Assembly (NCBI GenBank): GCA_000004695.1
Contig: CM000151.3
Coordinates: forward strand, 6,272,001-6,336,000
Length of the DNA: 64,000 bases
Origin: Dictyostelium discoideum
Taxonomy: Eukaryota
Reading direction: 5' to 3'
Shown: one piece after another, positions 46,754 to 63,278 of the stretch
How the letters are laid out: every line of letters begins with the position of its first letter
How positions within the stretch are numbered: position 1 is the stretch's first letter
The notes under the pieces: generated by a model
What the model was told of the DNA's origin: nothing
Seen by the model: the letters and a program-made list of their open reading frames with translations, nothing else
The model's database searches: none
Position numbers and translations under genes: made by a program

Positions 46754-49098
46754 ATGAGTTATCCACCACCAGTAGGAGATTCAATTAAATTAAAGGTTCA
46801 AGCCTCAAATGATCCAGAAGAAGCTTTTACAAATAGAGCATATTTACCAATTTCATCATTCAGTTTTTTATTCCCAAATGTACAATCAAATCTTTATACA
46901 ACCAATACAAATTATATTAAAATTAGAGTTGGAGCAAATGAATATATTTTATCTGCATCGTAAGTAACATACAATATATACATACTTATATACATAAATA
47001 ATTTATAGATATATTATAATTTTAAAATTAAAATAAAAATAATAATAATAATAAATAATTAAATTAATTATTTATTATTTATAAAAGACCAAATAAAAAT
47101 ATGAAACCAGATTCAATTGCATTATCAAAAGCATTAAGAGGATGGATGTATGTTAGTAATAATGAAGAAGTTTATGTTGAATTTTATGATCCAAATCCAA
47201 ATATTTGTGGTTCAATGAAAGTTAGTATCGATTATTTAACCAAAGGTAAACAAGGACCAAAACAAGATTCACAAGAGATCATTGGTAAAATCATTGACAA
47301 TTTCAATAGTCAATACTTTACATTTGGTCAATTATTTTATATAAAGAATAGTAATTCAACATTTGAATTAAGAGTTGAAGCAGTTGAAACCAATGAAGTT
47401 CCAACCAAAGATAAAGGTTGGGCTATCATTTCACCAGCCACCAAGATAATTTTACAAAAAATGCCAGGATCATTGATTGATATCGAAACCAATGGACCAT
47501 TGGTTGTAAATCAAATTTTCACTTCAGATTGGGATTTCGAAAATATGGGTATTGGTGGTTTGGATGCAGAGTTTAGAGATATTTTCAGACGTGCATTCTC
47601 TTCACGTATTTTCCCACCAGCAATCGTAAAGAAATTAGGTGTCAATCATGTTAAAGGTATGCTTTTATATGGTCCACCTGGTACTGGTAAAACTTTAATC
47701 GCCAGACAAATCGGTAAGATGTTAAATGGCCGTGAACCAAAGGTTGTCTCTGGTCCATCGATTTTAAATAAATATGTCGGTCAATCCGAAGAGAATATTA
47801 GAATGTTATTTAGAGATGCAGAGATTGAACAAAAGGCAAAGGGTGATGATTCAGGTTTACATATTATCATTTTCGATGAATTGGATGCAATTTGCAAATC
47901 ACGTGGCTCAAGACAAGGCGATTCAGGTGTTGGTGATTCAGTGGTAAATCAATTATTAGCAATGATTGATGGTGTCGAATCTTTAAATAACATCTTGGTC
48001 ATTGGTATGACCAATAGAAAGGATATGATCGATGAAGCTTTACTTCGTCCAGGTCGTTTAGAAGTACACGTTGAGATCTCATTACCCGATGAACATGGTA
48101 GAGAACAAATCTTTAAGATTCATACCGCTAAAATGAGGGATCAAAATGCATTGGACAAAGATGTTAATCTCGCCAATTACGCTCATACAACTAGAAACTA
48201 TAGTGGTGCTGAGATTGAAGGTGTTGTGAAATCTGCTGCATCCTATGCTTTCAGTAGACAAGTCGATACTAAAAACATTAAAAACGTTGAAATCAAACCA
48301 GAGGATATTAAAGTTTGCGATCAAGATTTCAAGAGAGCCATCACCGAGGTCACTCCATCATTTGGTTCCACAGATAATCAATTCGAATCCTATGCAGAGA
48401 ATGGTATCATCAATTATGGTCCAGTCTTTGATAAACTCTTACAAAGTGGTAATGCCTTTGTTGAGCAAGTAAAGAAATCAAATAGAACTCCAATGATGTC
48501 GGTCCTCTTGTCAGGTAGACCAGGTTGTGGTAAATCTTCTTTGGCTGCGACCCTTGCCAAGAGTTCAGAATTCCCATTCACTCGTATCATTAGTCCAAAT
48601 GATTTACTTGGTTACAATGAATCTGCAAAGGCATCAAAAATCACAAAGGTTTTCGAAGACTCTTATAAATCTCCAATGAGTTGTGTCGTTGTCGATGAAA
48701 TTGAACGTCTCATTGAATATGTACCAATTGGTCCACGTTTCTCAAATCTTATCCTTCAAACTTTGGCAGTTCTCTTTAAAAGAACCCCACCAAAAGGTCG
48801 TAAACTTTTAGTGATTGCAACTACTTCCAATCCTGATATTCTCAAAGATATGGATATTATGGATTGTTTTGCTACAGTTTTATCCGTTCCATCAATCAGT
48901 ACCGCTAAAGAATTCCAAACCGTTTGCTTTGAACTTGGTTTCACTCAAAAAGAAGCCTCTGAAGCTGCCTCCTTCTTTACTTCACCAATCACTATCAAAC
49001 AAATCATTATGATTGTCGAAATGGCAAGACAAGAAGAAGGTAATTTCATTGATAACTTTAAAATGTGTTTAGAAGATTTTAATATACGTAATTTTTAA
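46754..49098 (+). CDS. nsfA: N-ethylmaleimide-sensitive factor (NSF, AAA+ ATPase), ~739 aa. Exons 46754..46959 and 47088..49098; intron 46960..47087
   Basis: Exon 1 is an NSF-N-type domain (MSYPPPVGDSIKLKVQASNDPEEAFTNRAYLP...) ending ..GCATC|GTAAGT (phase 2). The acceptor ..ataaaAG|ACCAAATAAAAATATG is in frame. D1 AAA domain: 'GMLLYGPPGTGKTLIARQIGKMLNGREPKVVSGPSILNKYVGQSEENIR', 'IIIFDELDAICKSRG'. D2: 'SVLLSGRPGCGKSSLAATLA'. Confidence 0.9.
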
Positions 49099-49256
49099 AT
49101 AAATTAATAGTTAATCAACTTTGAATTAATTATTTGATAAAATAAATAATGATTTTTTTTTATTATTTTATTTATTTATTTTTTTTTTATAGAAATTTTG
49201 TACAATTTATTTTTAATTTACTGTTTTAAATTATTTAACTTTTTTTTTTATTAATT

Positions 49257-52200
49257 TTAATCACTTGAATCACTTGAAATATCATCATCATCTTCTTCTT
49301 GTTCAGATTGTTCAGATTCTTGTAAACCATGTTGTTTTAATTTTTGTGAAGCATAATTTAAAGCCTCTTCGAAACGTTGAGATGGAGTTTCTTCATCAAT
49401 ATCTGATTCCTCTTGATTAGATTCTGTTTGTTTTTTCTTTGATTCATCGTCAGAGGTTTCAATATCTGAAGTATCTTGAGAAGGTGATTTTCTTTTTGGT
49501 GGTGATTTTTGTTTTGTGGTTGATTGGTCAGTATCTTTCATTTCAGTATCTGAAGTTTGTTGATTATTATCTTTTTCTTTTTCAATATTTTCCATTTCTT
49601 TATCTTGTGGTTGACTTGATTGACTTAATTCATCATCACCTTGTTGCTTAATGATACCACCAAAACGTATGAATCTCTCTTTTACTTGATTAAATTCAGC
49701 TGCTCTAAGAAGATATTCTTTATGAAGTTTTTCAAATATTTTCTTGTCATGTTTAAGTTTTTCAGAGGAATCAGCATTTGAATCTTGATTAGCCTCATCT
49801 TGAACCATTATAGCGCAGGCCTCTTCAGCTTTAGCCAAAGCTTTGAGAGCCCTCTTTTTAGCACGTTTAAATTCAAATGCGACGAGATGTTTATTTTCAG
49901 CAACACCCAAAACTGGTCTATCTTGATTAAACTCTTCTTCTGTAATACCTTGATAAGAGTAATCGAAAGCACTACCATTATCCAATTGTTTAATAACGTT
50001 AAGAGCATCTTCAGTTGAACCTGGTACTAACTTAGAACCACCTTTATTGAAAACAACAATCCAATTTTGATTAGCATCCATGACAAACTCTGGACCAAAA
50101 GTAGTGGCAATGAATTGAATCTCTCTTGAATGTTTACGAATCATCTTTGATACGGCTACTCTATAGTTATGATCGAGTGCAGCATCAATTTCATCTAAAA
50201 GATAGAATGGAGCAGGATCAGTACGTTGAAGTGCGAAAATTAAAGCCAAAGCTACCAAAGTTTTTTGACCACCACTTAATTGTCTCATTGAACATGGTTC
50301 ATGACCTTCACCAAATGAAACTTGAATACCAATACCAGTGAAGGTTAATAATCCTTTTGGAGTTTCACCATCGGCCCATTCTTTTGGATCTTCACCCTCG
50401 CCTTCATCTTCGTCCATTTGACGTTTCATTACTAATTTAGCACTGCCACCTGGAATCAATTCTTTAAATACTTGAGTGAAATTCTTTGCGACACCACTAA
50501 AAGTTCTAGCGATAGCTTCATCTTTTTTATTATCAAGTGTTTTAATAAGTAATTGAATTGAAGCATTGGATTCATAAAGTTCATCTCTTCTTGCCTCTAA
50601 ACTATTGTATTGATTTGTAAAACTATTGAATTGATCATTTGCTTTTTGATTTACATGTCTCAATGAAGCCAATGATTTATTGATCTTATTTAATTCTTCA
50701 ACTGATTGATCTTTATTATATTTCTTCAATTCTTCAAAATTGAATCTATCACCTTTTGATAGTACTCTTAGCTGTTTAGCATCTCTAACTTTATTAAAAC
50801 TTTGAATTTGTGCAAGGAGGGATTCCATCTTTTTACCATCGGCAACCAATTGATCAGCGATTGTAGAGGTTTGTTGTTTCAATGCATCGATTGATACTTT
50901 AATTGGTTTAATTTCAGCGTCTTTTTCATTCAATGATTGAACCAATGATTCTAATTTCTCACGAACACCATCAATCTCTATATTGATCTCATCGATTTCC
51001 TTTTGTTTAAGTTCAATTTGTAATTTAGAGTTTTCAGGATTAAGTGATTTAATCTCACCTTCGATTTCCATTAAACGTTTACCATAGTTTTGATTGAGTT
51101 GATTGGTCATTTGATTCTTTCTAGATTGAAGTTTCATAACGTCTGAAGAGATTGAAATCTTTTGTTCCTTTAATTGAATCGATGATTCACTCAATGTTAA
51201 AAGTAAATTACTCTCTTCTTCAGTTAATTTAGTATTGAATGCTGTATTGATTTGTTTTTGATAACCATCGATAGTATCTTTACAATTTTGAATATCAATC
51301 TTTAATTTCTTTAAGATGGTTTGTTTCTTCTCAAGAATTTCAATGTACATAGTACGTTCAGAGATGATTTTATCCAATTCCACTCTACTATTATCATTGT
51401 TTGATAAGATTTTATTCTTTTCATCCTCTTTGGTTCTAATGGTTTTTTGAATGGATAAAAGAGATGCTTGAAGTTTCTCCAATTCAGATTCCTTCTCAGT
51501 TAATTGAGTTTGAAGTTGTTGATATTGTTGACGCCAATGTTTAATTTGTTGATAACTAGAGAGTTTTAATTTCTTTTTACTATAGTAACCACCGGTTACA
51601 GCACCTTTTGAATGGAAAACATCACCTTCAAATGTAATACAATCGACATGACTTGATTTTCTAACTTGTTCAGCTGTGGCTTCATCTTTACAGATTAAAG
51701 TTTTACCAAATACCAATTTCATTGCCTCTGTATAGATTGGATCGAATGAGATCACCTTAATCAATGGACAAACTAAATCATTCTCTAGTATTGGGAATTT
51801 TGGTGGTTTAGTTCTTACACGATTCAATGGAATGAATGAAAGACGACCAATGTTTTCAGTGTTTAAGATCTCCAATATCTTTGAGGCGGTATCATCAGTG
51901 TCGACCACCACATGGAATAAACCATTGCCACCTACAACCTCCAATGCTAAAGTTGCCTCTGGCTCAACGATATCAAAGAGTTCAACCAATGGACCATGAA
52001 TACCCTTGATTTTACCCTCTTGTCTAATTTGATTCAATCTTGTCAAACCCTCACTCAATGGACGATTCATAATGGTTTGAAGGTTTCTTTCTGCTTTCTT
52101 CCATTCATTTCTATGCTCTGTTAGATTGGATTTCATTTCATTGATCGATTGGAAAGTTGAGGAAACTCGTTGTTCAATTTGATCTTTCTCCAACTTTAAT

Positions 52201-53661
52201 TCATGAACTCTCAATTCTGCTGTCTTTACAATCTCTGCTTCTTTATCTTTTGAAGCCATACTATTATCAAATTGTTTACCCTTTGATTGCTGAATTTGTT
52301 TCATATCCTCTACATCCTCCTCCAATGATTGAGCTTGTTGTTCATATTGGTTAACTATATCCTCAAGTTTTGAACTTTCATCACCCAAATATTTATCTCT
52401 CTCTGTCTTTGATTTAAATTGAAACATACCTTGTTTAACATACAATTCTTGTAAATTTCTTTCAGTACTTGACAATTTATTATCAATATCATCCTCTTGG
52501 CCTATTAACTCCTCTAGTTTTGGTTTAATGATTTCAATCTCTTTCTCTAATTTCTCTTTACTACCACTCAATAAATCTTGTTCCTTTTGTAACTTTTCCA
52601 ATTTAGCTTGTTCCTTTGATAATAACTTTTTAAAATGTTTTTGTTGTATAACTAATTGTGCTTTTTGTTTATCAAATACTTCATTTAATTTTTCTACCAT
52701 AATTTTTTCATTATCAATTTTTTTAATTTCACTTAAAAGTTTATTAAATTTACTTTCATCCTCTTTAAAAAGAAATAAATAATATTAGTATATATATAAA
52801 TTATAAATATTTAAAGTAATAAATAATAAATAAATAATTACTTTTTAATTCATCAGTAAATCTTTCTAATTTTTTAGATTCTTTTGAAGAATGAATTAAA
52901 TATTTTTCTTTTTCTTTTTCAAGATCTAGAATTCTATCATTTGATTCATTTGCTTCTAAATGAATGATATAGGCTTCAAATTGTTTTTTCATTTCAATTT
53001 GAGTTTGATATAATTGTAATTCTTTACGTTCTTTATCTAATACTTTGATACGTTCATCAATGTATTTTAGAAATTCTTCAATCTTTATTGATTTACTCTC
53101 AGACTCTATCATGATTGCAACAGACTCTCTCTTACGTTCTTCATAAACGGTTGCACCTGCTACCTCTTTTAACATATCCAATCTATCAGAATCTTTCATT
53201 AATGCTAATGTATTGATTTTACCTTGTTGTACGATATAGTATGGATTACTACTTGAGAAACCGGCTGCTTCAAACATATTTCTAACATCTGCTTTAGATA
53301 ATTTATTATTACCAATACTAAATTCATCTTTTGATGTACCAAATGTTCTACGTAATGAAAATTCAGTTTTATCAATCTAAAATAATAATAATAATTAGAG
53401 ATTATTTTAATTTTATTAAAAAAAAAAAAAAAAAAAAAAAAAACTTACAGGGAATCTATGATCACTATTATCAAATACAATCTCTACATAACCAGTTTGC
53501 ATTGTATTACCACCATAACTGTGTAATAGTTTTAATCTATCTTCTGAATTATTACCAACATTAAGATCACCTAATAGAAATCTAATTGCTGCAAATAAAT
53601 TACTTTTACCTGCACCATTTCTACCAGCTAGTATTTTATTTTATTTTATTTTTTAAATTAA

Positions 53662-53734
<73 letters not shown>

Positions 53735-53878
53735 GTAAAAAAAAGAAATATTATTATTATTTTTTTAATTTAAACTATACTTACTAACAACATTAAAACC
53801 TGGGTGTAATGTAATAGATGTAAAACCTTGATCTTTATAACTTCTAAAACCTTTTATAAATATGAATTTTATAAACAT
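49257..53878 (-). CDS. smc3: SMC3 (cohesin ATPase subunit) with a C-terminal acidic extension. Exons 53785..53878, 53449..53627, 52842..53376, 49257..52762; introns 53628..53784, 53377..53448, 52763..52841
   Basis: Exon 1 'MFIKFIFIKGFRSYKDQGFTSITLHPGFNVV' (~MYIKQVIIQGFRSY..). Exon 2 'TGRNGAGKSNLFAAIRFLLGD...VEIVFDNSDHRFP' (Walker A). Exon 3 'IDKTEFSLRR...FEAAGFSSSNPYYIVQQGKINTLA...LKEVAGATVYEERKRES'. Exon 4 carries an SMC3-type hinge ('GIHGPLVELFDIVEPEATLALEVVGGNGLFHVVVDTDDTASKILEIL', 'VFGKTLICKDEATAE', 'DCITFEGDVFHSKGAVTGGYY') and the signature 'LSGGQKTLVALALIFALQRTDPAPFYLLDEIDAALD'. All donors are GTAAGT/GTAATT and all acceptors ...AG; phases 1,0,1. Confidence 0.85.
53663..53733. repeat. 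(ATT)n microsatellite inside smc3 intron 1
   Basis: A perfect att repeat of ~23 units. Confidence 0.9.
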
Positions 53879-54633
53879 TTTTTTTTATAAATGAAAAAGA
53901 GAAAAATATTTATATATATAATATATACATATAATTAATTTTCTTTTTTTTTATTTTTTTTTTTTTCTATTTTTTTGAATAAAATGAAATTAAAATTATA
54001 AACGGATAAAAAATAAAAAATTCCAATGGAAAAAAAAAAAAAAATTAAAAAAAAAAAAAAAAAAAATTTGGCGCCAATTTCGTGGAAAATGAAAGAATTA
54101 TTGAAAAAAAATAAAGACAAAAATAATCCAATTCTATTTTTTTTTTTTTTTTTTTTAAAATTATATTTTATTTCTATTATTATTATTTTTTTTAAATTAT
54201 TATTTATTTTATTATAATTTTTTTTTAATAAAATTTTTAATTTAATTTATTATTTTATTTTTTTTTTGTTTCAAAAGATTGAAATAAATAATTAAAAAAA
54301 AAAACTATTTTTAAAATTTTATGTTTAAGGTATTTTGACTTTTTTTTTTTTTTTTTAATACTTGTAAATGTTGCTATTTCATATAATGTCATGTGATGTC
54401 AAAATACCTCTTCAAAAAAAAAAAAAAAAAAAATAAAAAAATAAAAAAATTTAGTTGGAAATAAATAAAAACAGAGTAATCAACCAGATATTTAAAAAGG
54501 ATTGATATCACGCAATGTTTTTGATAAAAAATAAAAAAAAAAATTTTTAATTTTTTTTTTCTAATTTTTTTTTTTTTATTTCAAATTTTTTTTTTTTTTT
54601 TTTTTTTTTTGTAATTTATTATTTTTTTTGTAT

Positions 54634-54671
<38 letters not shown>

Positions 54672-54679
54672 GTAAAGAA

Positions 54680-55530
54680 ATGGAAAAATTTCAAAGAGAA
54701 TTAACAGATCAAGCAATTAAAAAGATTGTTTCAACATTAAGATCAATTTTATATAGAATAGAAACTAAAGACTGTAAAGATGTTGTTGGTTTATTAGAAC
54801 CATATATGGATGAAGAATCTTATCAAAATATTAGAGAGACATTTTTAAGATATCAAGAGAAACATAGATTAAATGAATTTGCAGATGATGAAGAGGATAT
54901 TTTAGAAGATGAAGAAGAGGATGAAGATGAAGATAATATAAATAAAAATATAGATGATAACACCACCTCCACCACCAACAAATGTGGTGTTAATGGCATT
55001 GAAAATATATCAAATAAATATTTATTACAAATTCAAGATGTTGCAGCAAGATTGGTTTCATCATCAACTGCATCAGCATCAACTTCAAATGGTAGTGGTT
55101 CCAATGGTGAAAGTGGCACCACTCGTTATAATAGAATTGCAGATAGACAATCACGTGAAAATAGCTCACAAAGCTCAAATGGTGGTGGTGGTGGTGGTAG
55201 TGGTGAGAATGGCACACGTAAAAAGAGAAGAGGTGCTTCAAAGGGATTCCCATTGAATTGGGGTCTCATCATGTCAATGGCCTCAAATATCACACTCGAT
55301 CAAGTTCAATCAATGCTCAATGTACTCATTATGGTTTTATCTCGTACTCCAATCAACGTACTCTTCAAACAATTCCATGAATATAAATTCATCATCTCCT
55401 CTGTTTTCGATCTTTTAAATGCAATACTTCGTGGTGATATCAAAGATATTGGCACTTGTCTCATCATTGCTGTCATTGGTGTCATTCGTTTCTCTCAACG
55501 TAAAAATTTAACTTTAATTACAAGTATGTA

Positions 55531-55565
<35 letters not shown>

Positions 55566-55810
55566 TTTGTAATTTAAAAATAACTTTTTATTAATAAATT
55601 TTTAATTTTTTTTTTTTTTTTTTTTTTTTTTTAGCTTTGGAAGTTGCAAAATATCTTTACAATTCTGGTAACAAAAAGAAGTTTGGTTTAATCAGATCTG
55701 TTTCATTGGTTGCTTTCCTTTCCAACCTTTTCAAACTTGTAAATCCACCACCAGTAACTCCATTAGATGTTATACAATTAGTTAAATCCCAAATTCAATC
55801 AAGATTATAA
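54680..55810 (+). CDS. Hypothetical protein (~340 aa) with an acidic/Ser-Gly-rich middle and hydrophobic C-terminal segments. Exons 54680..55523 and 55635..55810; intron 55524..55634
   Basis: Real ATG (aaagaaATGgaaaaa). 'MEKFQRELTDQAIKKIVSTLRSILYRIETKDCKDVVGLLEPYMDEESYQNIRETFLRYQEK...'. Donor ..ACAA|GTATGT (phase 1). Acceptor t(n)AG|CTTTGGAAG gives '..TLEVAKYLYNSGNKKKFGLIRSVSLVAFLSNLFKLVNPPPVTPLDVIQLVKSQIQSRL*'. No family recognised. Confidence 0.55.
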
Positions 55811-56287: not shown

Positions 56288-57647
56288 ATGTCTTCAAATA
56301 CTCAAACTGTTCCTATAAATCAAACTCAATTTTCACACCCTCCACCGCCTCCCAGTAATTTTGGTTGGATATTTGCATTATTTGGTGCTATAATTGGTAT
56401 TCCATCTTCAATTAGAAATTTAGCAATTAAATTGATTCTAACACTTATTTTTGTTCCTTTGCTAACAATAATTGCAATACTAAATCCATCATTACAATTA
56501 TATTTAACAGAAAGAAAGATTAGTATATGTTATTACTGGTCGTCTCCATGGTTTTGTACTTCCCCAAAACAACTTTTACCAATGAATTATAGTGTTATAA
56601 TTGATATTAAATCAATTTTGTCACTTAAAGATGGATGGGAAATAGTATCAGATGGTGGGCAATTTTCAAAAAAATTTTTAAACCAAGATGCTGAATATCA
56701 AAAAATATTAATAGCTATAACAGGGGATTATAATAGTGGTAAAACTTGGTTTTTAAATAATTTAGAGAATACTAATTATCAATCTTCATACCAAAATGCT
56801 ACACCTGCATTCTCATTTGTTGAATCATCAATTTCTCCCTATGTTTATATGGATACTCAAGGTTTAAAACGATTAGCATCTTCTTCAATTCGTGATGATA
56901 GCAGTAGACATAGTATCAAGGATATCAAAGCCCTTGATAGTTTGGTTTCAGATTCATACAATGTTCCTAGCATTATTTTTGAAGTTAGAGATACTGGTAA
57001 TAATGATGATTATTGTACTCAGGAACAAAGACATGAAGAGTATTTTCAAGATCAAGTTATTCCAAAAAAAGTTGTTGTTGTTCATAATTTTAAAAATTTG
57101 GAAACAATATCTGAAGTTGAAAAATACATTCGTGACGACATTATTAATCCTGAAATTGGGGGTCAATTAGTCATTAGTTCAACTCCAGGAACCATTGGTT
57201 GCCAATACTGGTATGTTGGTAGAATTTACCATTTCGTTGTTGCTAAAGGAGGATCAAAAGCAGGAAAATTTTATAACAAATGTACATTTGATCTCATTAG
57301 ATCAACTATTCTTACCAATCAAGCTTATGTACCAAAAATAAATATTTTAAATTCTCTCATAATAAATATAGAGCAATCTCTAAGAAATAATTTAAGAGAT
57401 CCAAATTTACCAAAAGATGGATTTGTAAATGTAAAGAAGGATTCATGGAAACTCTTTAGTTTTGTAAGAAATATTTATAATCAATTTTCTTCCAAACCAG
57501 ATCCTGATGAACCAATTGACATTGAAACTAATCCATTTAAATTAATAATAGAAAATAACAAAATTAAATTAACCAACTCTTCATTTGATTTGGAATTTGC
57601 TTTTAAAGATAGCTGTGGATTTAAAAATATTGATTTTAATCCACAAG

Positions 57648-57688
<41 letters not shown>

Positions 57689-58094
57689 TTTATAGATTTT
57701 ATTTCTCAAACATATTAAATACCACTAACTAATTCAATTTTATTTTTTTTAGTGTGACGTAACTTTTAATGAACTTGAAAATAATTTCGGAATTACATGT
57801 GATCTTCCAAATTCATATATAAACTGGAGTTGCTCAAAAAACAATCCTAACATAGTTTTTCTCTATTATGAAAGAAAATCTCCAACATATTCAACCTCAC
57901 ATATTAAAAATAAAATTAATCGTAGAACATATATTAAACATAGAAAATATTTTGTAATTCCAACAAAGCATTGGATTACTTGTAAAAGTTTAATTTCAAC
58001 TGCTGTATATAAAGATGGTACTGCCCATGTATCACTCTCTGAAGATAGTACTGTTGTTGCTGGGTCTCCATTCCCAAAAGATGATAATAATTAA
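56288..58094 (+). CDS. Paralogue A of a tandem family: N-terminal TM segment + GBP/atlastin-like P-loop GTPase domain (exon 1, 56288..57646) + C-terminal HSP20/alpha-crystallin-like exon (57753..58094); intron 57647..57752 rich in (ATT)n
   Basis: TM: 'FGWIFALFGAIIGIPSSIRNLAIKLILTLIFVPLLTIIAIL'. G1 'ITGDYNSGKTWFLNNLEN' (GxxxxGKT followed by LxNxL as in GBP/atlastin), G3 'YMDTQGL' (DTQG as in atlastin), G4-like 'IIFEVRDTGNN' (RD motif of GBP/atlastin). Donor CCACAA|GTAAGT and acceptor t(n)AG|TGTGAC are in phase 0. Exon 2 'CDVTFNELENNFGITCDLPNSYINWSCSKNNPNIVFLYYERKSPTY...RRTYIKHRKYFVIP..ISTAVYKDGTAHVSLSEDSTVVAGSPFP' fits the alpha-crystallin pattern F..D.P....(ISFY)ER...R..G.F.R.F.LP...........DGV..V..PK. 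Confidence 0.7.
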
Positions 58095-58313
58095 AATTAA
58101 AATTTTAAATAAACTAAAAATTCAAATAAATTAAAAAATATAAAAACAATAAAATTTAAAAAAAAAAATAAAAAAAAATGTGTAAATTTTTATTTTTATT
58201 TTTTTTTTTAAAAATTAAAAATTTGATTTAACCAACTTTAATATTAATTTAAATTTTTAATTTAATTTATTATATCAATAATTAATCATTTGATTTGGTG
58301 TGGGTCTTGGTCA

Positions 58314-58344
<31 letters not shown>

Positions 58345-58430
58345 AAAAAAGCCCAGGTTCTATATAAACAAAATTTCTGAATTTGCAAATTTATAGTAGC
58401 TCTAACAGGTGATTACAACTGTGGTAATTA
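58345..58430 (+). pseudogene. Degenerate ~85-bp relic of the P-loop-encoding segment of the GTPase family, in the A-B intergenic region; a second, weaker relic lies at 58678..58725
   Basis: 'gcccaggttctatataaacaaaatttctgaatttgcaaatttatagtagctctaacaggtgattacaactgtggtaa' aligns to gene B 59440..59522 ('..ggtagccagtttgcatctatgtttgtaaatcaacaatctgaatactcaaaattattagtggcattaacaggtgattacaacagtggtaaaac'). 'aaagcccaggtggtattttataaacaaaattaattctgg' at 58678 repeats its 5' part. Confidence 0.55.
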
Positions 58431-59144
58431 ATTTAGAAAAAAAAAGAATTATAAATTTCTAATTGTTGATGGTTTGGAAAAACCCAAAAAAAAAAAAAAA
58501 AAAAAAAAAAAAATAAATCTGTTTCTCTTAGTAAAAGTTCCCATTTTTTTTATTTCTCAAATTTATGAAATATTTTTTTTAAACTCATTTCTTAAAAAAC
58601 AAAAATGCTAAATTTTCCATATCTGCCTTATCTATTATATTTTTTGTTTTTTATTACCTTTTAAACTTTTTTTTTTAAAAAGCCCAGGTGGTATTTTATA
58701 AACAAAATTAATTCTGGTGTATCGAAAACTTAACTTAATAAAATATATTTATGCATTTAATTTAAAATCTTTATCTCTTTTTATTTTTTTATTTTTTTAT
58801 TTTTATTTTTGTTTTTTTTTAGTTCCAAAATAAATAAATACAGATAATTGATCACCATATTAAAAACATTTGAATTTTTAATAAATTTTTTGTAAAATTT
58901 TACAATAATTCTTTTTAAAATCCCATCAAAGTAGCTCGGAATTATCTAAATAATTTTTTTTTTTTTTTTTTTTTTTTTTCGTAAAAAAATAAGCATTTAC
59001 AAGATATTTGTTATTGATCCAAAAATTTTTTTAAAAAAAAATAATTTTTAAAGCAATCTTTTGAAAAAAAAAAAAAAAATTTCAAAGCAAACTTTTGAAA
59101 AATAAAAAAAAAAACGAAACCAAACAAGCAGTATAACATTTAAA

Positions 59145-60882
59145 ATGCCTGATTCTCCTCTCACTGAACCTCGACAGCCTCCACAGCCTCCACAGCCTCC
59201 ACATTTTTTAAGCTGGAGAAATTTTTTAAGCTTTAGAAAATTTATAAGCTGGAAAAATGCTTTTTTAATTTTAATTCCAATTTTATTAGCGATAGGAATA
59301 GGAAACTATGAACAAATAATTCAATATTCTTCTGGCCCTATATTTATTGAAAAATTTGATCAATATAATGTTATAATTAATATTAAATCCATTTTGGCAA
59401 TAAAAGAAGGATGGGGAATAACAACCGATGGTAGCCAGTTTGCATCTATGTTTGTAAATCAACAATCTGAATACTCAAAATTATTAGTGGCATTAACAGG
59501 TGATTACAACAGTGGTAAAACTTTTTTGATCAATAACTTGGAAAACAAGAATTTCCCATCTTCATATCAACATGCAACACCTGCATTTGGGTTTATACAA
59601 TCATCAATTTCAGATTATATTTATATGGATACTCAAGGTTTGAAAAGATTAGCATCATCTTCACTTGATTCCGATAGGGGTACCCATAGCATCAAGGATA
59701 TCAAAGCCATTGATAATTTAATCTCTCAGTCTTATAAAGTTGCAAATTTAATTATCGAAGTCAGAGATACAGGTAACAATGAGGATATTTGCAATACTCA
59801 ACAAAGACATGCCGAGTACCTCCAAGATAGCAAAGCCAATGGATATCAAATCCCTGTTATGGTTGTTGTTGTCCATAACTTTAAAAACATGAGAACCGTT
59901 GCTGAAGTTGAAAAATATATTCGTGATGATATTACAAATCCAGAAATCGGTGGTCAAGAAAAAGAAGTTGATTCAAAAACTGGAGATAAAAAATGCAAAT
60001 ACTGGTATGTTGATAGCGTATTACATTATGTTATTGCCCAAGAAGGCTCTGAAGCTGGTAAAGTTTATAACAAATGTACATTTGATCTCATTAGATTAAA
60101 AGTTTTACAAGATCAAGGTGGTATTCCAAAAGTCAACTTTTTAAATAAACTCACTCTGGTTATGGAACAATCTTTAAGAAATTATATTAAAGATCCAAAT
60201 GTATCAAAAGATTCATTTGTAAGAGTAAAGAAGGATGAAACAATCGTTAGTTATGCAAGTTATCTCAAGTCTTTTTTTTCTTCCAAATCAGATCCTGAAA
60301 AACCTGATCAACCTACCCTTATTGAATCACATCCATTCAAAGTTTCAATACAAAATAACAAAATTAAATTGGTTAACTCTACTTTTGATTTACAATTTTC
60401 TTATAAAGATTGTTGTGGATTTAAAAACATTGATTATTCTCCACAAGTATGTATTATTATTATTTTTTATTTTTTTTATTTTTTTATTTTTCAAAAAAGA
60501 TATCAATTACAACATACTAATTAAATTTTATTATTATTTTAATTTTTAGTATGATGTAATCGAAACTTCAGATTCTTTTTCAATAGTAGTTGATGCACCA
60601 AATTCAATTGTCAATTGGTTTTGCTCGCCAAGTGAATCACACACAATTAGTTTTTATATTGAAAGAAAATTCCCAACATATTTAAGTTCTCATCTTAGAA
60701 GAAATATTAATCCAAGAACATATGGTGAAATCAAGAAAGAGTTTCAAATTCCATCTAGACCATGGATTGACTGCCTAAGATTAATTCCAACTGCTAAATA
60801 TATAGACGGTGTAGCATTTGTATCACTAACTAAAGATAGTACTGTTATTGGTGGTTCTCCATTTCCAGAAGATAAAAAATAA
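59145..60882 (+). CDS. Paralogue B (TM + GBP/atlastin-like GTPase + HSP20-like C-terminal exon). Exons 59145..60446 and 60550..60882; intron 60447..60549
   Basis: 'MPDSPLTEPRQPPQPPQPPHFLSWRNF..', TM 'AFLILIPILLAIGIG', 'LVALTGDYNSGKTFLINNLENKNF', 'YMDTQGLKRLASSS', 'NLIIEVRDTGNNED', 'VVVVHNFKNMRTVAEVEKYIRDDITNPEIGG'. Donor CCACAA|GTATGT, acceptor ..ttttAG|TATGATGTAATC. Exon 2 '..VDAPNSIVNWFCSPSESHTISFYIERKFPTYLSSHLRRNINPRTYGEIKKEFQIPSRPWIDCLRLIPTAKYIDGVAFVSLTKDSTVIGGSPFPEDKK*'. About 60% aa identity to paralogue A across the GTPase domain. Confidence 0.7.
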
Positions 60883-61169
60883 TATTTTTTAAATTGATTA
60901 AATAAATAATAAAAAAAAAAAATAATAAAAAAAAATAAAATAAAATAAAATAAAAAAAAAAAAAAGTAATTATTAAATTACCCTTTATTGTATATAATAA
61001 AATTAATAAATCTAAAAGGATTGGTTTGATTTTTTTTTTTTTTTTTTTTTACTTTTTTTTTATTTTCATAACAACTCCCCTTATTTTTATTTTTTTATAA
61101 TTAAAAAAAATTTGGTTATTAGTGATAGGTGATCTCTATTTTTGGATTTTAAAAAAATAGTGTTTTTCC

Positions 61170-61189
61170 TTTATCCATTTTTGGATAAA
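61170..61189. promoter_or_regulatory. Perfect 8-bp inverted repeat TTTATCCA-tttt-TGGATAAA (two opposed GATA-type cores) ~350 bp upstream of pseudo-paralogue C; a further TTTATCCA is at 61206
   Basis: Seen directly at 61170..61189. TTATC/GATAA is the core recognised by GATA zinc-finger factors. Confidence 0.3.
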
Positions 61190-61534
61190 AAGTATCTTTT
61201 TAGATTATCTTTATCCATCCTCATTTTTTACCCTTTTGAAAATTTTTTTTTTTTTTTTCAAAGATATTTTTTCAATCATAAAAAAAAGTGTTTTAATTTT
61301 ATTAACTAATGTTTTTTTTAAAATCTAATCAAATTTTCCAAATTATATTATTTTTTTATTAAAAGATATTTTTTCAAAAGATATTTGTTTTGATTAAAAA
61401 TTTTAAAAATAAAAAAAAAAAAAATTTTAAAAATTGTTTTTTTTTTTTTAAGACAAAAATAAGATTTTATTTTTTTTTTTTTTTTTTAAAAAGTAAAAAA
61501 ATTTTGAGACTGATTCAACAGTATTATTTTTAAA

Positions 61535-62801
61535 ATGTTACCGCAATCCATGTCTCCTCCCTCTCAACCATCAGGGTTTTATCCCTCTCAACAGCCTGAA
61601 TCTTCTTCCTCTCAAAGTCAACCAAATCCTCGTATTTCAGAATCACAATCTAAGTCTTCTTCCTCTAAAATCCAATCTCATAATTATCTGAGCTGGAAAA
61701 ATTTTTTTTATTTTATTTCAATACTTTTAATTTCAATTTTCACATCAGTATTTTTAGTTGGGAATTTATATCCAGAGTATCAACCATATACTCCATTTCT
61801 TTGGCAGCCTATTTGCATCTATGTTTATAGACCTACAATCTGAATACCCAAAATTGTTAGTGGCATTATCAGGTGATTACAACAGTGGTAAAACTTATTT
61901 GATGAATAAGTTAGAAAACAAGAATTTCCAGTCGTCATATCAATATGCAACACCTGCATTTGGATTTATACAATCATCAATTTCAGATTATATTTATATG
62001 GATACTCAAGGTTTGAAAAGATTAGCATCATCTTCACTTGATTCCGATAGGGGTACCCTTAGCATCAAAGATATCAAAGCCATTGATAATTTAATCTCCC
62101 AAACTTATAAAGTTGCAAATATTATTATTGAAGTAAGAGACACAGGTAACAATGAAGATATTTGCAATACCCAACAAAGACATGCCGAGTACCTTCAAGA
62201 TAGAATAACAAGTGAAAACCAAATCCCTGTTATGGTTGTTGTTGTCCATAACTTTAAAAATTTAAAAACAATATCTGAAGTTGAAAGATACATTCGTGAT
62301 GATATTACTAATCCTGAAATTGGTGGCCAATTAACAGTTAGTTCAAAACCTGAAACCAAAGGTTGCAAATGCATGTTGATAGCATATTACATTATGTTAT
62401 TGCCCAAGAAGGTACTGAAGCTGGTAAACTTTATAACGAATGTACATTTAGCCTCATTAGATTAAAAGTTTTACAAGATCAAGGTGGTATTCCAAAAGTT
62501 AACTTTTTAAATAAAATCATTCAAATCATGGAACAATCATTGGGAAGTTATATTAAAGATCCAAAAGTATCAAAAGATTCATTTGTAAGAGTAAAGAAGG
62601 ATGAAACAATTGCAAGTTATTGGGGTTCTTTTTTTTCCAAAACGGAACCTGAAAAACCTACTCTTGTTGAAACACATGAATTTAAAATTACAATACAAAA
62701 TAACACAATTAAATTGATTAACTCTTCTTTTGATTTAGAATTTTATAAAGATAGTTGTGGATTTAAAAGCATTGATTATTCTCCACAAGTAAGTATTATT
62801 A

Positions 62802-62887
<86 letters not shown>

Positions 62888-63278
62888 TTTTCGATTTTAA
62901 TTTTTTAAAAAAAGATATTAATTACAATACTAATCTAATTTTTATTTTTAGTATGATGTAGTTGACAAACCAGATTTTTTTTCAATTGTATATGATGCAC
63001 CAAATTCATATGTACAATGGCTTTGCTCACAAAATAATTCTCACATAATTGTTTTTCAAAGTGTAAGAAAATTCCCAACATACTTACGTTCTGATCTTAG
63101 AAGAAATATTTATCCAAGAACATATGGTAATAACAAAAAAGAGTTTCAAATTCCATCTAAACCAGGGATTGACTGTGCAAGATTATCTGTGACTGCTAAA
63201 CATATAGACGGTGTAGCATTTGTTTCTCTCGCTAAAGATAATAATGTTATTGGTGGTTCTCCATTTCCAAGAAGATAA
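61535..63278 (+). pseudogene. Paralogue C of the GTPase/HSP20-like family, disrupted by a ~100-bp internal deletion and a 4-bp indel (three reading frames); the 3' exon 62952..63278 is still intact
   Basis: The ORF track splits it into 61535..61843, 61758..62465 and 62363..62908 in three frames. Nucleotide alignment to paralogue B shows loss of the segment encoding 'IFIEKFDQYNVIINIKSILAIKEGWGITTDGSQ' (between ..tatactcc and ggcagcc.. at ~61790..61812). At ~62375, C has 'tgcaaatgcatgttgatagca' where B has 'tgcaaatactggtatgttgatagcg'. The intron (62790..62951, long (ATT)n) and the HSP20-like exon are conserved ('YDVVDKPDFFSIVYDAPNSYVQWLCSQNNSHIIVFQSVRKFPTYLRSDLRRNIYPRTYGNNKKEFQIPSKPGIDCARLSVTAKHIDGVAFVSLAKDNNVIGGSPFP'). 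Confidence 0.65.

Follow-up and report, generated by a model that had tools for sequence, protein, structure and literature searches.

A tandem array in Dictyostelium discoideum predicted to encode membrane-anchored P-loop G domains joined to a divergent alpha-crystallin domain

Three head-to-tail units and the joining of their exons

We analysed a 64,000-nucleotide stretch of the Dictyostelium discoideum genome (strain AX4, chromosome 2; contig CM000151.3 of assembly GCA_000004695.1, positions 6,272,001 to 6,336,000 of the forward strand; hereafter the window), in which three homologous units follow one another head to tail at 56288-58094, 59145-60882, and 61535-63278, exactly the bounds given in a preliminary description made from the letters alone. 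These units correspond to DDB_G0276097 (copy 1), DDB_G0276219 (copy 2), and DDB_G0276095 (copy 3), all of which are annotated as hypothetical proteins, the first carrying the UniProt label 'G domain-containing protein'. The comparisons described here indicate that the intact genes each encode one protein with a membrane segment near its N-terminus, a P-loop G domain after it, and a domain of the alpha-crystallin/HSP20 type at its C-terminus. The gene models are as follows, and residue positions given below for the G domain, cysteines, and sequon follow copy 2 numbering.

56288-58094, plus strand: copy 1, DDB_G0276097, 566 aa; exon 1 56288-57646, intron 57647-57752, exon 2 57753-58094; splice product identical to the database protein
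59145-60882, plus strand: copy 2, DDB_G0276219, 544 aa; exon 1 59145-60446, intron 60447-60549, exon 2 60550-60882; splice product 100% identical over 100% of the length to the database protein
61535-63278, plus strand: copy 3, DDB_G0276095, pseudogene-like; intron 62789-62951, exon-2-like part 62952-63278

At the nucleotide level, copies 1 and 2 are 70% identical, copies 1 and 3 67%, and copies 2 and 3 80%, and a tblastn search found no further full copy within the window. The shared two-exon structure with a first exon of about 450 codons, initially attributed to all three units, holds for copies 1 and 2, which give splice products of 566 and 544 aa, but not for copy 3, in which exon 1 is broken. 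The splice junction first read from the sequence recurred in every copy, with exon 1 ending in CCACAA, the intron running from GTA(A/T)GT to TTTTAG, and exon 2 opening with T(A/G)TGA (GTAAGT and TGTGAC in copy 1, GTATGT and TATGAT in copy 2). The (ATT)n richness ascribed to the intron is prominent in copies 1 and 3 but weak in copy 2, where such repeats are scarce.

Comparison and gene models also support the proposal that the two exons form one fusion protein. In more than 100 metagenomic homologues, which we call ciliate-like for reasons given below, the same junction (..GF.N....P.Y....D..I..E.PG..) lies within one uninterrupted open reading frame (ORF); in one such alignment, ..DELGFSNLKGNGFEPTYNYYKKDDKIIVRVEAPGN.. 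in the homologue corresponds to ..CCGFKNIDYSPQ and YDVIETSDSFSIVVDAPNS.. on the two sides of the Dictyostelium splice site. In the D. purpureum orthologue (P0068), an intron interrupts the alignment at the corresponding point, between VPS and VDI. The reading frame is maintained across the canonical GT..AG intron of each of the three copies, and nothing in exon 2 provides a separate start codon context. Given these observations, it is extremely improbable that exon 2 is a separate gene or untranslated and that no fusion protein is made, even though the fusion is read from gene models and comparison.

A protist family and its crystallin and G domains

When 1.84 billion representatives were searched exhaustively with HMMER and a full-length profile, 2,702 proteins were retrieved at E<=1e-3, 1,240 at 1e-10, and 435 at 1e-30, many of these matches running from about profile position 20 to about 568, and a second search yielded 542 matches at E<=1e-10. 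Ciliate-like proteins of this architecture can be aligned with the Dictyostelium copies from end to end, and in all of them a beta-hairpin block (YxVxxxIxSI..GW) is followed by a TRAFAC-class P-loop G domain, a helical linker, and an alpha-crystallin beta-sandwich. As judged from these alignments, the architecture is that of a large protist family, not a Dictyostelium oddity, and we name its members G-ACD proteins.

Dictyostelid members occur in D. discoideum, D. cf. discoideum, D. citrinum, and D. purpureum, the last with a single orthologue that is 42% identical (L005 10152-11861; GL871119.1 of assembly GCA_000190715.1, which we take to be D. purpureum). All remaining members are metagenome proteins; their sources include the cow-rumen project PRJEB21624 and AT-rich contigs of 1.5-3 kb that bear a single gene. 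Two NCBI assemblies, GCA_016648615.1 and GCA_016295205.1, are also among the sources of these homologues. On one contig of 42.8 kb, genes for cathepsin C, Brix, and the dynein-assembly factor DAAF5 are present as well. Telomere repeats were absent from the contig ends. Given the cow-rumen source, the AT-rich single-gene contigs, and the gene content of the 42.8-kb contig, we infer that the non-dictyostelid members come from ciliate-like rumen or gut eukaryotes. In a neighbour-joining tree, the dictyostelid clade was sister to all 85 ciliate-like sequences and not nested among them, a placement that speaks neither for nor against horizontal transfer from ciliates. A prokaryotic origin was considered and rejected, as a pattern scan of 185,579 species genomes revealed no prokaryotic relative.

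Two features at the ends of the ciliate-like proteins were also observed. Many members begin with a Cys-containing block of about 80 residues before a stretch that looks coiled-coil by eye, and many tails (for example those of P0012, P0018, P0021, and P0052) close with a run of acidic residues and then a single hydrophobic one (DEEI, EDEI, DDDV, EDEV), the final residue among 260 homologues being I in 79 and V in 23. Neither the acidic tail nor the Cys-containing N-terminal block had a Pfam match.

Within copies 1 and 2, the domains and motifs were located as listed.

56588-57277, plus strand: copy 1, N-terminal beta-hairpin block (YSVIIDIKSI..GW) and G domain; Pfam MMR_HSR1 E=0.0074
56723-56746, plus strand: copy 1, G1, GDYNSGKT
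56798-56812, plus strand: copy 1, G2 Thr in ATPAF
56852-56863, plus strand: copy 1, G3, DTQG
57071-57097, plus strand: copy 1, stretch containing His-Asn at the G4 position
57230-57277, plus strand: copy 1, G5-like H..A..GS.AG..YN
57753-58094, plus strand: copy 1, exon 2, predicted alpha-crystallin domain, homologous to copy 2 exon 2; the family profile matches small heat-shock proteins
59364-60071, plus strand: copy 2, N-terminal block and G domain
59499-59522, plus strand: copy 2, G1
59574-59588, plus strand: copy 2, G2
59628-59639, plus strand: copy 2, G3
59748-59768, plus strand: copy 2, LIIEVRD on beta4 (not G4)
59862-59888, plus strand: copy 2, VVVVHNFKN at the G4 position
60024-60071, plus strand: copy 2, G5-like block
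60550-60882, plus strand: copy 2, exon 2, predicted alpha-crystallin domain, aa 435-544 (AlphaFold2 model and Foldseek)

By profile and predicted fold, the C-terminal exon is a true, divergent alpha-crystallin domain. A C-terminal family profile built from 4 Dictyostelium and 10 ciliate-like sequences matched the PDB sequences of HspA (6ewn, E=2.4e-7), Schizosaccharomyces pombe Hsp16 (1.3e-5), Entamoeba Hsp20 (2e-3), and yeast Hsp26 (0.012), with matches spanning the whole domain. When the C-terminal 147 residues of copy 2 were modelled with AlphaFold2 (predicted local distance difference test score, pLDDT, 75) and the model was compared with the PDB using Foldseek, the best 50 matches were all small heat-shock proteins (sHSPs), with probability 1.00 and a target-normalised TM-score (TMt) of 0.6-0.71, and the C-terminal fold of the full-length copy 2 model likewise retrieved sHSPs. 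The alpha-crystallin/HSP20 pattern originally seen in exon 2 was thus recovered at both the profile and the fold level. In profile-profile comparisons, Dictyostelium-only and ciliate-like-only C-termini matched each other at E=5e-4 over 123 collinear columns, and ciliate-like C-termini matched four sHSP seeds at E=3e-4. Across the 92 family members in which motif conservation was counted (7 dictyostelid and 85 ciliate-like), 2 matched Pfam HSP20 at E<=0.01, one ciliate-like C-terminus had a faint match at E=0.1, and several family members are automatically annotated in IMG as 'HSP20 family molecular chaperone IbpA'.

The domain shares with sHSPs (Pfam HSP20 PF00011; Xanthomonas HspA, pea HSP17.7, S. 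pombe Hsp16, Methanocaldococcus jannaschii Hsp16.5) a beta-sandwich fold of about 100 residues, and the profile also aligns the strands ..F.I..D.P.., ..G.F...IP.., and ..DGV..V.L... However, sHSPs are stand-alone chaperones of 12-43 kDa, whereas here the domain forms the tail of a 60-kDa membrane-anchored predicted NTPase. The N-terminal region and C-terminal I-x-I motif of sHSPs are not present in the Dictyostelium copies, whose tails read ..GSPFPEDKK or ..GSPFPKDDNN, and the Dictyostelium crystallin domains differ further in carrying clade-specific cysteines and in falling singly below the Pfam threshold. Other Dictyostelium alpha-crystallin proteins (the HspG family, HSP48, hsp19, hsp69, hsp83) also combine a crystallin domain with additional regions but, unlike the array genes, have no G domain and no membrane anchor; one example is HSP48, a condensate-forming protein with a disordered tail (PMC6584373). 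Among Dictyostelium crystallin-domain proteins, a census from 2019 reported hsp19, hsp48, hsp69, and hsp83 as new and did not include the array genes (PMC6584373). For annotation, our results indicate that DDB_G0276097 and DDB_G0276219 carry a previously unrecognised alpha-crystallin domain.

The predicted secondary structure of the copy 2 G domain follows the canonical Ras-like order, with beta1 (113-118), P-loop, alpha1, beta2, beta3, DxxG, alpha2, beta4 (202-208), alpha3, beta5 (239-246), alpha4, an inserted hairpin, beta6 (292-298), and alpha5. G1 reads G-[DN]-x-N-x-G-K-[ST], with Asn at P-loop position 4 (residue 122) in 87/92 members (GDYNSGKT, GNxNKGKS); the G2 Thr145 is invariant; and G3 is D-[TS]-x-G followed by a hydrophobic residue, L or F after G165 in most members. 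The G4 position, at the end of predicted beta5, is occupied by His244-Asn245 in all 92 members and reads H-N-(F/L)-x-(N/T/E/S), such that the Asn of the canonical NKxD is retained and the Asp is absent throughout. After beta6, the G5-position block contains the invariant residues H294..A298..S302-x-A-G..Y308-N309. This conservation across both clades argues for a retained nucleotide site. The GDYNSGKT, (F/W)L(I/M)NxLEN, and DTQG motifs named at the outset are present in the sequence, as is (E/I)VRD, which had been read as G4; however, its residues 205-208 lie on predicted beta4 rather than at the G4 position, and the stretch is not conserved, being (L/I/V)VVG in ciliate-like members and VIG in D. 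purpureum.

That reading had placed the G domain in the GBP/atlastin/RHD3 branch of the dynamin superfamily, of which the fold-level part was retained. Foldseek of the full-length model ranked hGBP1 and hGBP2 first (E about 1e-5), and the predicted fold resembles the large G domains of GBP, atlastin, Sey1-RHD3, SMG8-SMG9, and RNF112 with an N-terminal beta extension before beta1, while the G1-G3 stretch resembles GK(S/T)(F/Y)L(L/M)N.L, T.G(I/L), and LLD(T/S).G(L) of the GBP/atlastin/SMG8-SMG9 group. At the sequence level, in contrast, Pfam MMR_HSR1 was matched by 87/92 members (E<=0.01; 20-26 bits in ciliate-like members), GBP (PF02263) by 28/92, and Dynamin_N by 9/92, and the GBP matches were weak (best 1.3e-6) and always accompanied by MMR_HSR1. 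A G-core profile searched against PDB sequences ranked EngA/Der (7e-8 to 3e-6) ahead of GBP5 (3.4e-6), GBP2 (9e-6), HflX (4e-5), GBP1 (5e-5), Era (6e-4), and Sey1 (0.01), with only G1-G3 aligned in nearly every listed match, including the four displayed EngA/Der alignments. Using hhalign, the family G profile matched hGBP1 at E=3e-7 and Escherichia coli Era at E=5e-7, a near tie in which the alignment is unreliable beyond G3 and says nothing firm on equivalence between the RD of GBP and the His-Asn seen here. Searched singly against Pfam and the PDB, the Dictyostelium proteins gave weak P-loop matches only, with no HSP20 and no GBP (no Pfam GBP match at E<=10), and family profiles were needed.

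The two motifs that define GBP and atlastin were likewise not found. Their hallmark is a catalytic P-loop Arg (GxxRxGKS; R48 in hGBP1, R77 in atlastin-1), whereas a P-loop Asn is typical of cation-dependent GTPases such as MnmE, FeoB, and Era. In the array proteins, Asn and His-Asn stand in place of the catalytic Arg and the (T/S)(L/V)RD motif. GBP and atlastin also have a long helical stalk or a three-helix bundle with a C-terminal hairpin, while only two or three helices (303-347, 367-378) follow the G domain here; the array proteins also have their membrane segment at the N-terminus, bear a crystallin domain, and show a short, Era-like beta4-alpha3-beta5 portion. The best sequence-level matches are Era, EngA (Der), EngB, and MnmE (Pfam MMR_HSR1 PF01926), which have in common with the family the P-loop Asn in GxxNxGK(S/T) and the hydrophobic residue after DxxG, and the pattern D-I-L-I-x-V-V...K-x-L-x-I-I-H-N (SDILIxVVG..EQKLLNRIK..KxLxIIHN) mirrors ...VIFVV...PVILAVNK of Era. 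The family differs from these proteins in its degenerate NKxD, in its larger domain with a hairpin inserted between alpha4 and beta6, in having no KH or other RNA-binding domain and no ribosome-assembly link, and in being found only in eukaryotes, with no relative among the 185,579 prokaryotic species genomes scanned. Taken on sequence, the G domain is a separate TRAFAC-class branch as close to Era/EngA as to GBP; by modelled fold it is nearest to the dimerising large G domains (SMG8/9, RNF112, GBP, atlastin). A His-Asn branch, in place of NKxD or RD, between Era-like and GBP-like TRAFAC groups bears on the origin of large dimerising GTPases.

These results also bear on whether the array encodes GBP/atlastin-branch dynamin-superfamily GTPases with a cytosolic body that act in cell-autonomous immunity on pathogen or organelle membranes and diversify in tandem. 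The 28/92 GBP matches and the GBP5, GBP2, and GBP1 hits speak for such immune GTPases, while the P-loop Asn, the His-Asn at G4 with an unconserved VRD on beta4, the at least equal fit of Era/EngA-type models, and the lack of a GBP helical domain and an atlastin C-terminal hairpin speak against them.

Membrane segment, cysteines, and topology

56426-56482, plus strand: copy 1, hydrophobic membrane segment IKLILTLIFVPLLTIIAIL, aa 47-65; Kyte-Doolittle 19-residue mean 2.72
59250-59303, plus strand: copy 2, hydrophobic membrane segment WKNAFLILIPILLAIGIG, aa 36-53; hydropathy, with an AlphaFold2 helix at residues 36-59

Hydropathy analysis agreed with the N-terminal hydrophobic segment first noticed by inspection, the Kyte-Doolittle 19-residue means being 2.0-2.7. 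One strongly hydrophobic N-terminal segment is present in 6/7 dictyostelid members and in none of 260 non-dictyostelid homologues; the latter have an N-terminal extension with a median of 108 residues that looks coiled-coil by eye. In the dictyostelid branch, a Pro-rich stretch and a single hydrophobic membrane segment have taken the place of the apparent coiled coil with which the ciliate-like relatives begin. In copy 2, the N-flank of the segment has a net charge of +3 and the C-flank of -1. The longest D. purpureum ORF starts MVSK-LFCIVGTIFFFGVFCFSYL-DFYD, in which the signal-like MVSKLFCIVGTIFFFGVFCFSYL resembles a signal peptide or a type II anchor, with the reservation that the true N-terminus is uncertain given a different first exon in the database gene model.

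Six cysteines (C216, C284, C311, C424, C459, C509) are invariant in 7/7 dictyostelid sequences, an extra Cys at 423 is found in 6/7, and an N-x-S/T sequon at N411 is present in 7/7, the cysteine and sequon region of copy 2 covering about 59790-60800 of the window. At the six cysteine positions, the 85 ciliate-like sequences have mostly T, G, F/Y, L, S, and I/L. The cysteines and sequon may be the signature of relocation to an oxidising compartment. Given the positive-inside rule, the signal-like start in D. purpureum, the six clade-specific cysteines, and the conserved N-x-S/T site, we lean towards a lumenal or extracellular protein body, for which we nevertheless see roughly even chances. Such a topology would not fit a GBP-like cytosolic immune role, so that the flank charges, the cysteines, and the D. 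purpureum start add to the points against immune GTPases. The dictyostelid-specific gain of anchor and cysteines offers a clean case of possible compartment switching.

Turnover of the array and possible function

Copy 3 and a short relic upstream of copy 2 indicate that the array has gained and lost genes.

58351-58434, plus strand: relic of a fourth copy, in the spacer that separates copies 1 and 2, with the P-loop fragment ..ALTGDYNCGN ending at a stop

The relic was detected by blastn (58376-58427, 53 nucleotides, against 59466-59518; 83% identity, E=1.8e-8) and by tblastn (46% identity over 28 aa). Exon 1 of copy 3 is spread over three frames (61535-61843, 61758-62465, 62363-62788), with breaks near 61800 and 62375, the latter a 4-bp deletion relative to copy 2 in the KYWYV region; the family-invariant YxVxxxIxSI..GW block is gone and the stop codon is shifted. 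The annotated 438-aa model bypasses these defects by extra introns and thereby drops the membrane segment, the YxVxxxIxSI..GW block, and the invariant H..A..GS.AG..YN motif, and DDB_G0276095 is best treated as a pseudogene. In a second strain, assembly GCA_054859385.1 (labelled D. discoideum), the same three-gene array lies in synteny, and its copy 3 orthologue (L006 14879-16586) has a P-loop deletion and a frameshift but an intact N-terminal block and KFWHV region. Since the lesions differ from those in AX4, decay was independent in the two strains. In D. cf. discoideum, we found one fused, fragmentary gene model (P0002). Given the copy 3 lesions, the relic, and this fused model, the locus is a tandem birth-and-death array with two intact genes, one pseudogene, and one relic.

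Three upstream neighbours, all in the region 46754-55810, served as a neutral yardstick for evolutionary rate between the two strains.

47101-49098, plus strand: ORF of an AAA ATPase with a CDC48_2 Pfam domain
49257-52700 and onward, minus strand: SMC protein
54680-55594, plus strand: low-complexity ORF of 304 aa

Nucleotide identity to AX4 was 97.1% for AAA, 96.0% for SMC, and 95.1% for the 304-aa gene, and 89.7%, 90.5%, and 87.2% for copies 1, 2, and 3. Nei-Gojobori ratios of nonsynonymous to synonymous divergence (dN/dS) were 0.09, 0.05, and 0.33 for the same neighbours and 0.47, 0.37, and 0.35 for the copies, so that, relative to the SMC and AAA genes, the array has a 7-14 times higher dN and a dN/dS 4-9 times as large. 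The array proteins evolve several-fold faster than their neighbours, yet under net purifying selection (dN/dS <1).

The initial suggestion of an immunity-type, fast-turnover array was accordingly upheld in its second half, by gene birth and death and faster protein evolution, while the immunity role stays speculation, given dN/dS below 1 and a body that may not be cytosolic. Immune GTPases of the GBP/atlastin branch would gain from the pseudogene, the relic, the independent lesions in two strains, and the elevated dN, but there was no gene-level sign of positive selection, and expression or infection data were not found in the literature searched. Together with the motif and topology evidence above, this makes the immune reading unlikely.

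Decay might instead extend to the whole family, with the array proteins being pseudo-GTPases or functionless and a lineage-specific set of genes drifting to loss. Consistent with this are the differently broken copy 3 in each strain, the relic and the fragmentary D. cf. discoideum model, the dN/dS excess over SMC and AAA, and the absence of a guanine-specifying Asp. On the other hand, neither the ORFs nor the splice sites of copies 1 and 2 are damaged, the nucleotide-site residues and six cysteines are invariant among D. discoideum, D. citrinum, and D. purpureum, dN/dS values of 0.37-0.47 indicate purifying selection, and the three genes remain syntenic in a strain whose neighbour genes differ by 3-5% at the nucleotide level. 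Such wholesale decay therefore seems quite unlikely.

As the best explanation, we favour, with modest confidence, a G-ACD fusion family in which nucleotide gates the assembly of a membrane-tethered crystallin domain. We are highly confident in the architectural part of this explanation, while its mechanistic part is tentative and more doubtful than not. In this mechanism, the G domain would bind nucleotide and dimerise via its nucleotide face, as do SMG8-SMG9, GBP, and atlastin, and the P-loop Asn suggests assistance by a monovalent cation, as in Era, EngA, and MnmE. A second interface, of the sHSP type and serving dimerisation, oligomerisation, or client binding, would come from the crystallin domain, and the nucleotide state would control whether a membrane-tethered crystallin scaffold or holdase assembles. 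We propose nucleotide-gated assembly because the nearest structural relatives dimerise by their G domains and crystallin domains are dimer/oligomer and client-binding modules.

Several observations weigh against this explanation. The guanine-reading Asp is missing, so that the term GTPase itself is unproven and, judging by the residues at G4, base specificity is uncertain. The Dictyostelium copies fall below the Pfam MMR_HSR1 cutoff of 21.9 (21.5 bits for copy 2, 16.8 bits for copy 1) and singly have no Pfam HSP20 match, and the full-length copy 2 model is of moderate quality (pLDDT 63). Given that Dictyostelium-only C-termini matched the four sHSP seeds at only E=0.054, with the register correct, the sHSP link depends partly on ciliate-like members and predicted structure. 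A lumenal or extracellular GTPase would be unusual, and its nucleotide step would then need ATP or another source, or be vestigial. Finally, no biochemical, localisation, or expression data for any member were found in the literature searched.

A broader possibility, which we consider unlikely, is that G-ACD proteins are a widespread, hitherto undescribed class of nucleotide-gated chaperones or scaffolds of the sHSP type in protists, and that the dictyostelid branch was moved by its signal anchor to the secretory pathway or cell surface and acquired an altered base specificity. A move behind a signal anchor would account both for the glycosylation site and for the six new cysteines that the branch conserves, and Asp-to-Asn changes at G4, which switch GTPases to xanthine nucleotides, offer an analogy for the base specificity. 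If true, this would be a P-loop NTPase-crystallin machine working outside the cytosol. Small heat-shock proteins are textbook ATP-independent chaperones. A crystallin domain hard-wired to a nucleotide switch across a large family would amount to a natural experiment on how the assembly of holdases or scaffolds can be regulated, and the family's occurrence in a genetically tractable model organism makes it directly testable.

The preliminary description had regarded the array as a candidate undescribed system. Both domains are of known kinds, and in the literature searched we found no description of a G-domain/crystallin fusion or of the G-ACD family; the genes themselves, however, were already annotated and belong to a large protist family. 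The only mention of the three genes in that literature concerns copy 3, whose (ATT)n intron (62789-62951) in DDB_G0276095 is the named source of a newly gained intron in DDB_G0275263 (PMC4683709).

Two short duplications were also detected between the units.

58971-59052, plus strand: segment that precedes copy 2 and recurs before copy 3 at 61348-61431 (blastn self-comparison, 74% identity over 86 nucleotides, E=2e-7)

This segment probably belongs to a duplicated promoter region. A second, shorter pair (58336-58375 and 58667-58709; aaagcccaggt...ataaacaaaat) lies in the intergenic region between copies 1 and 2.

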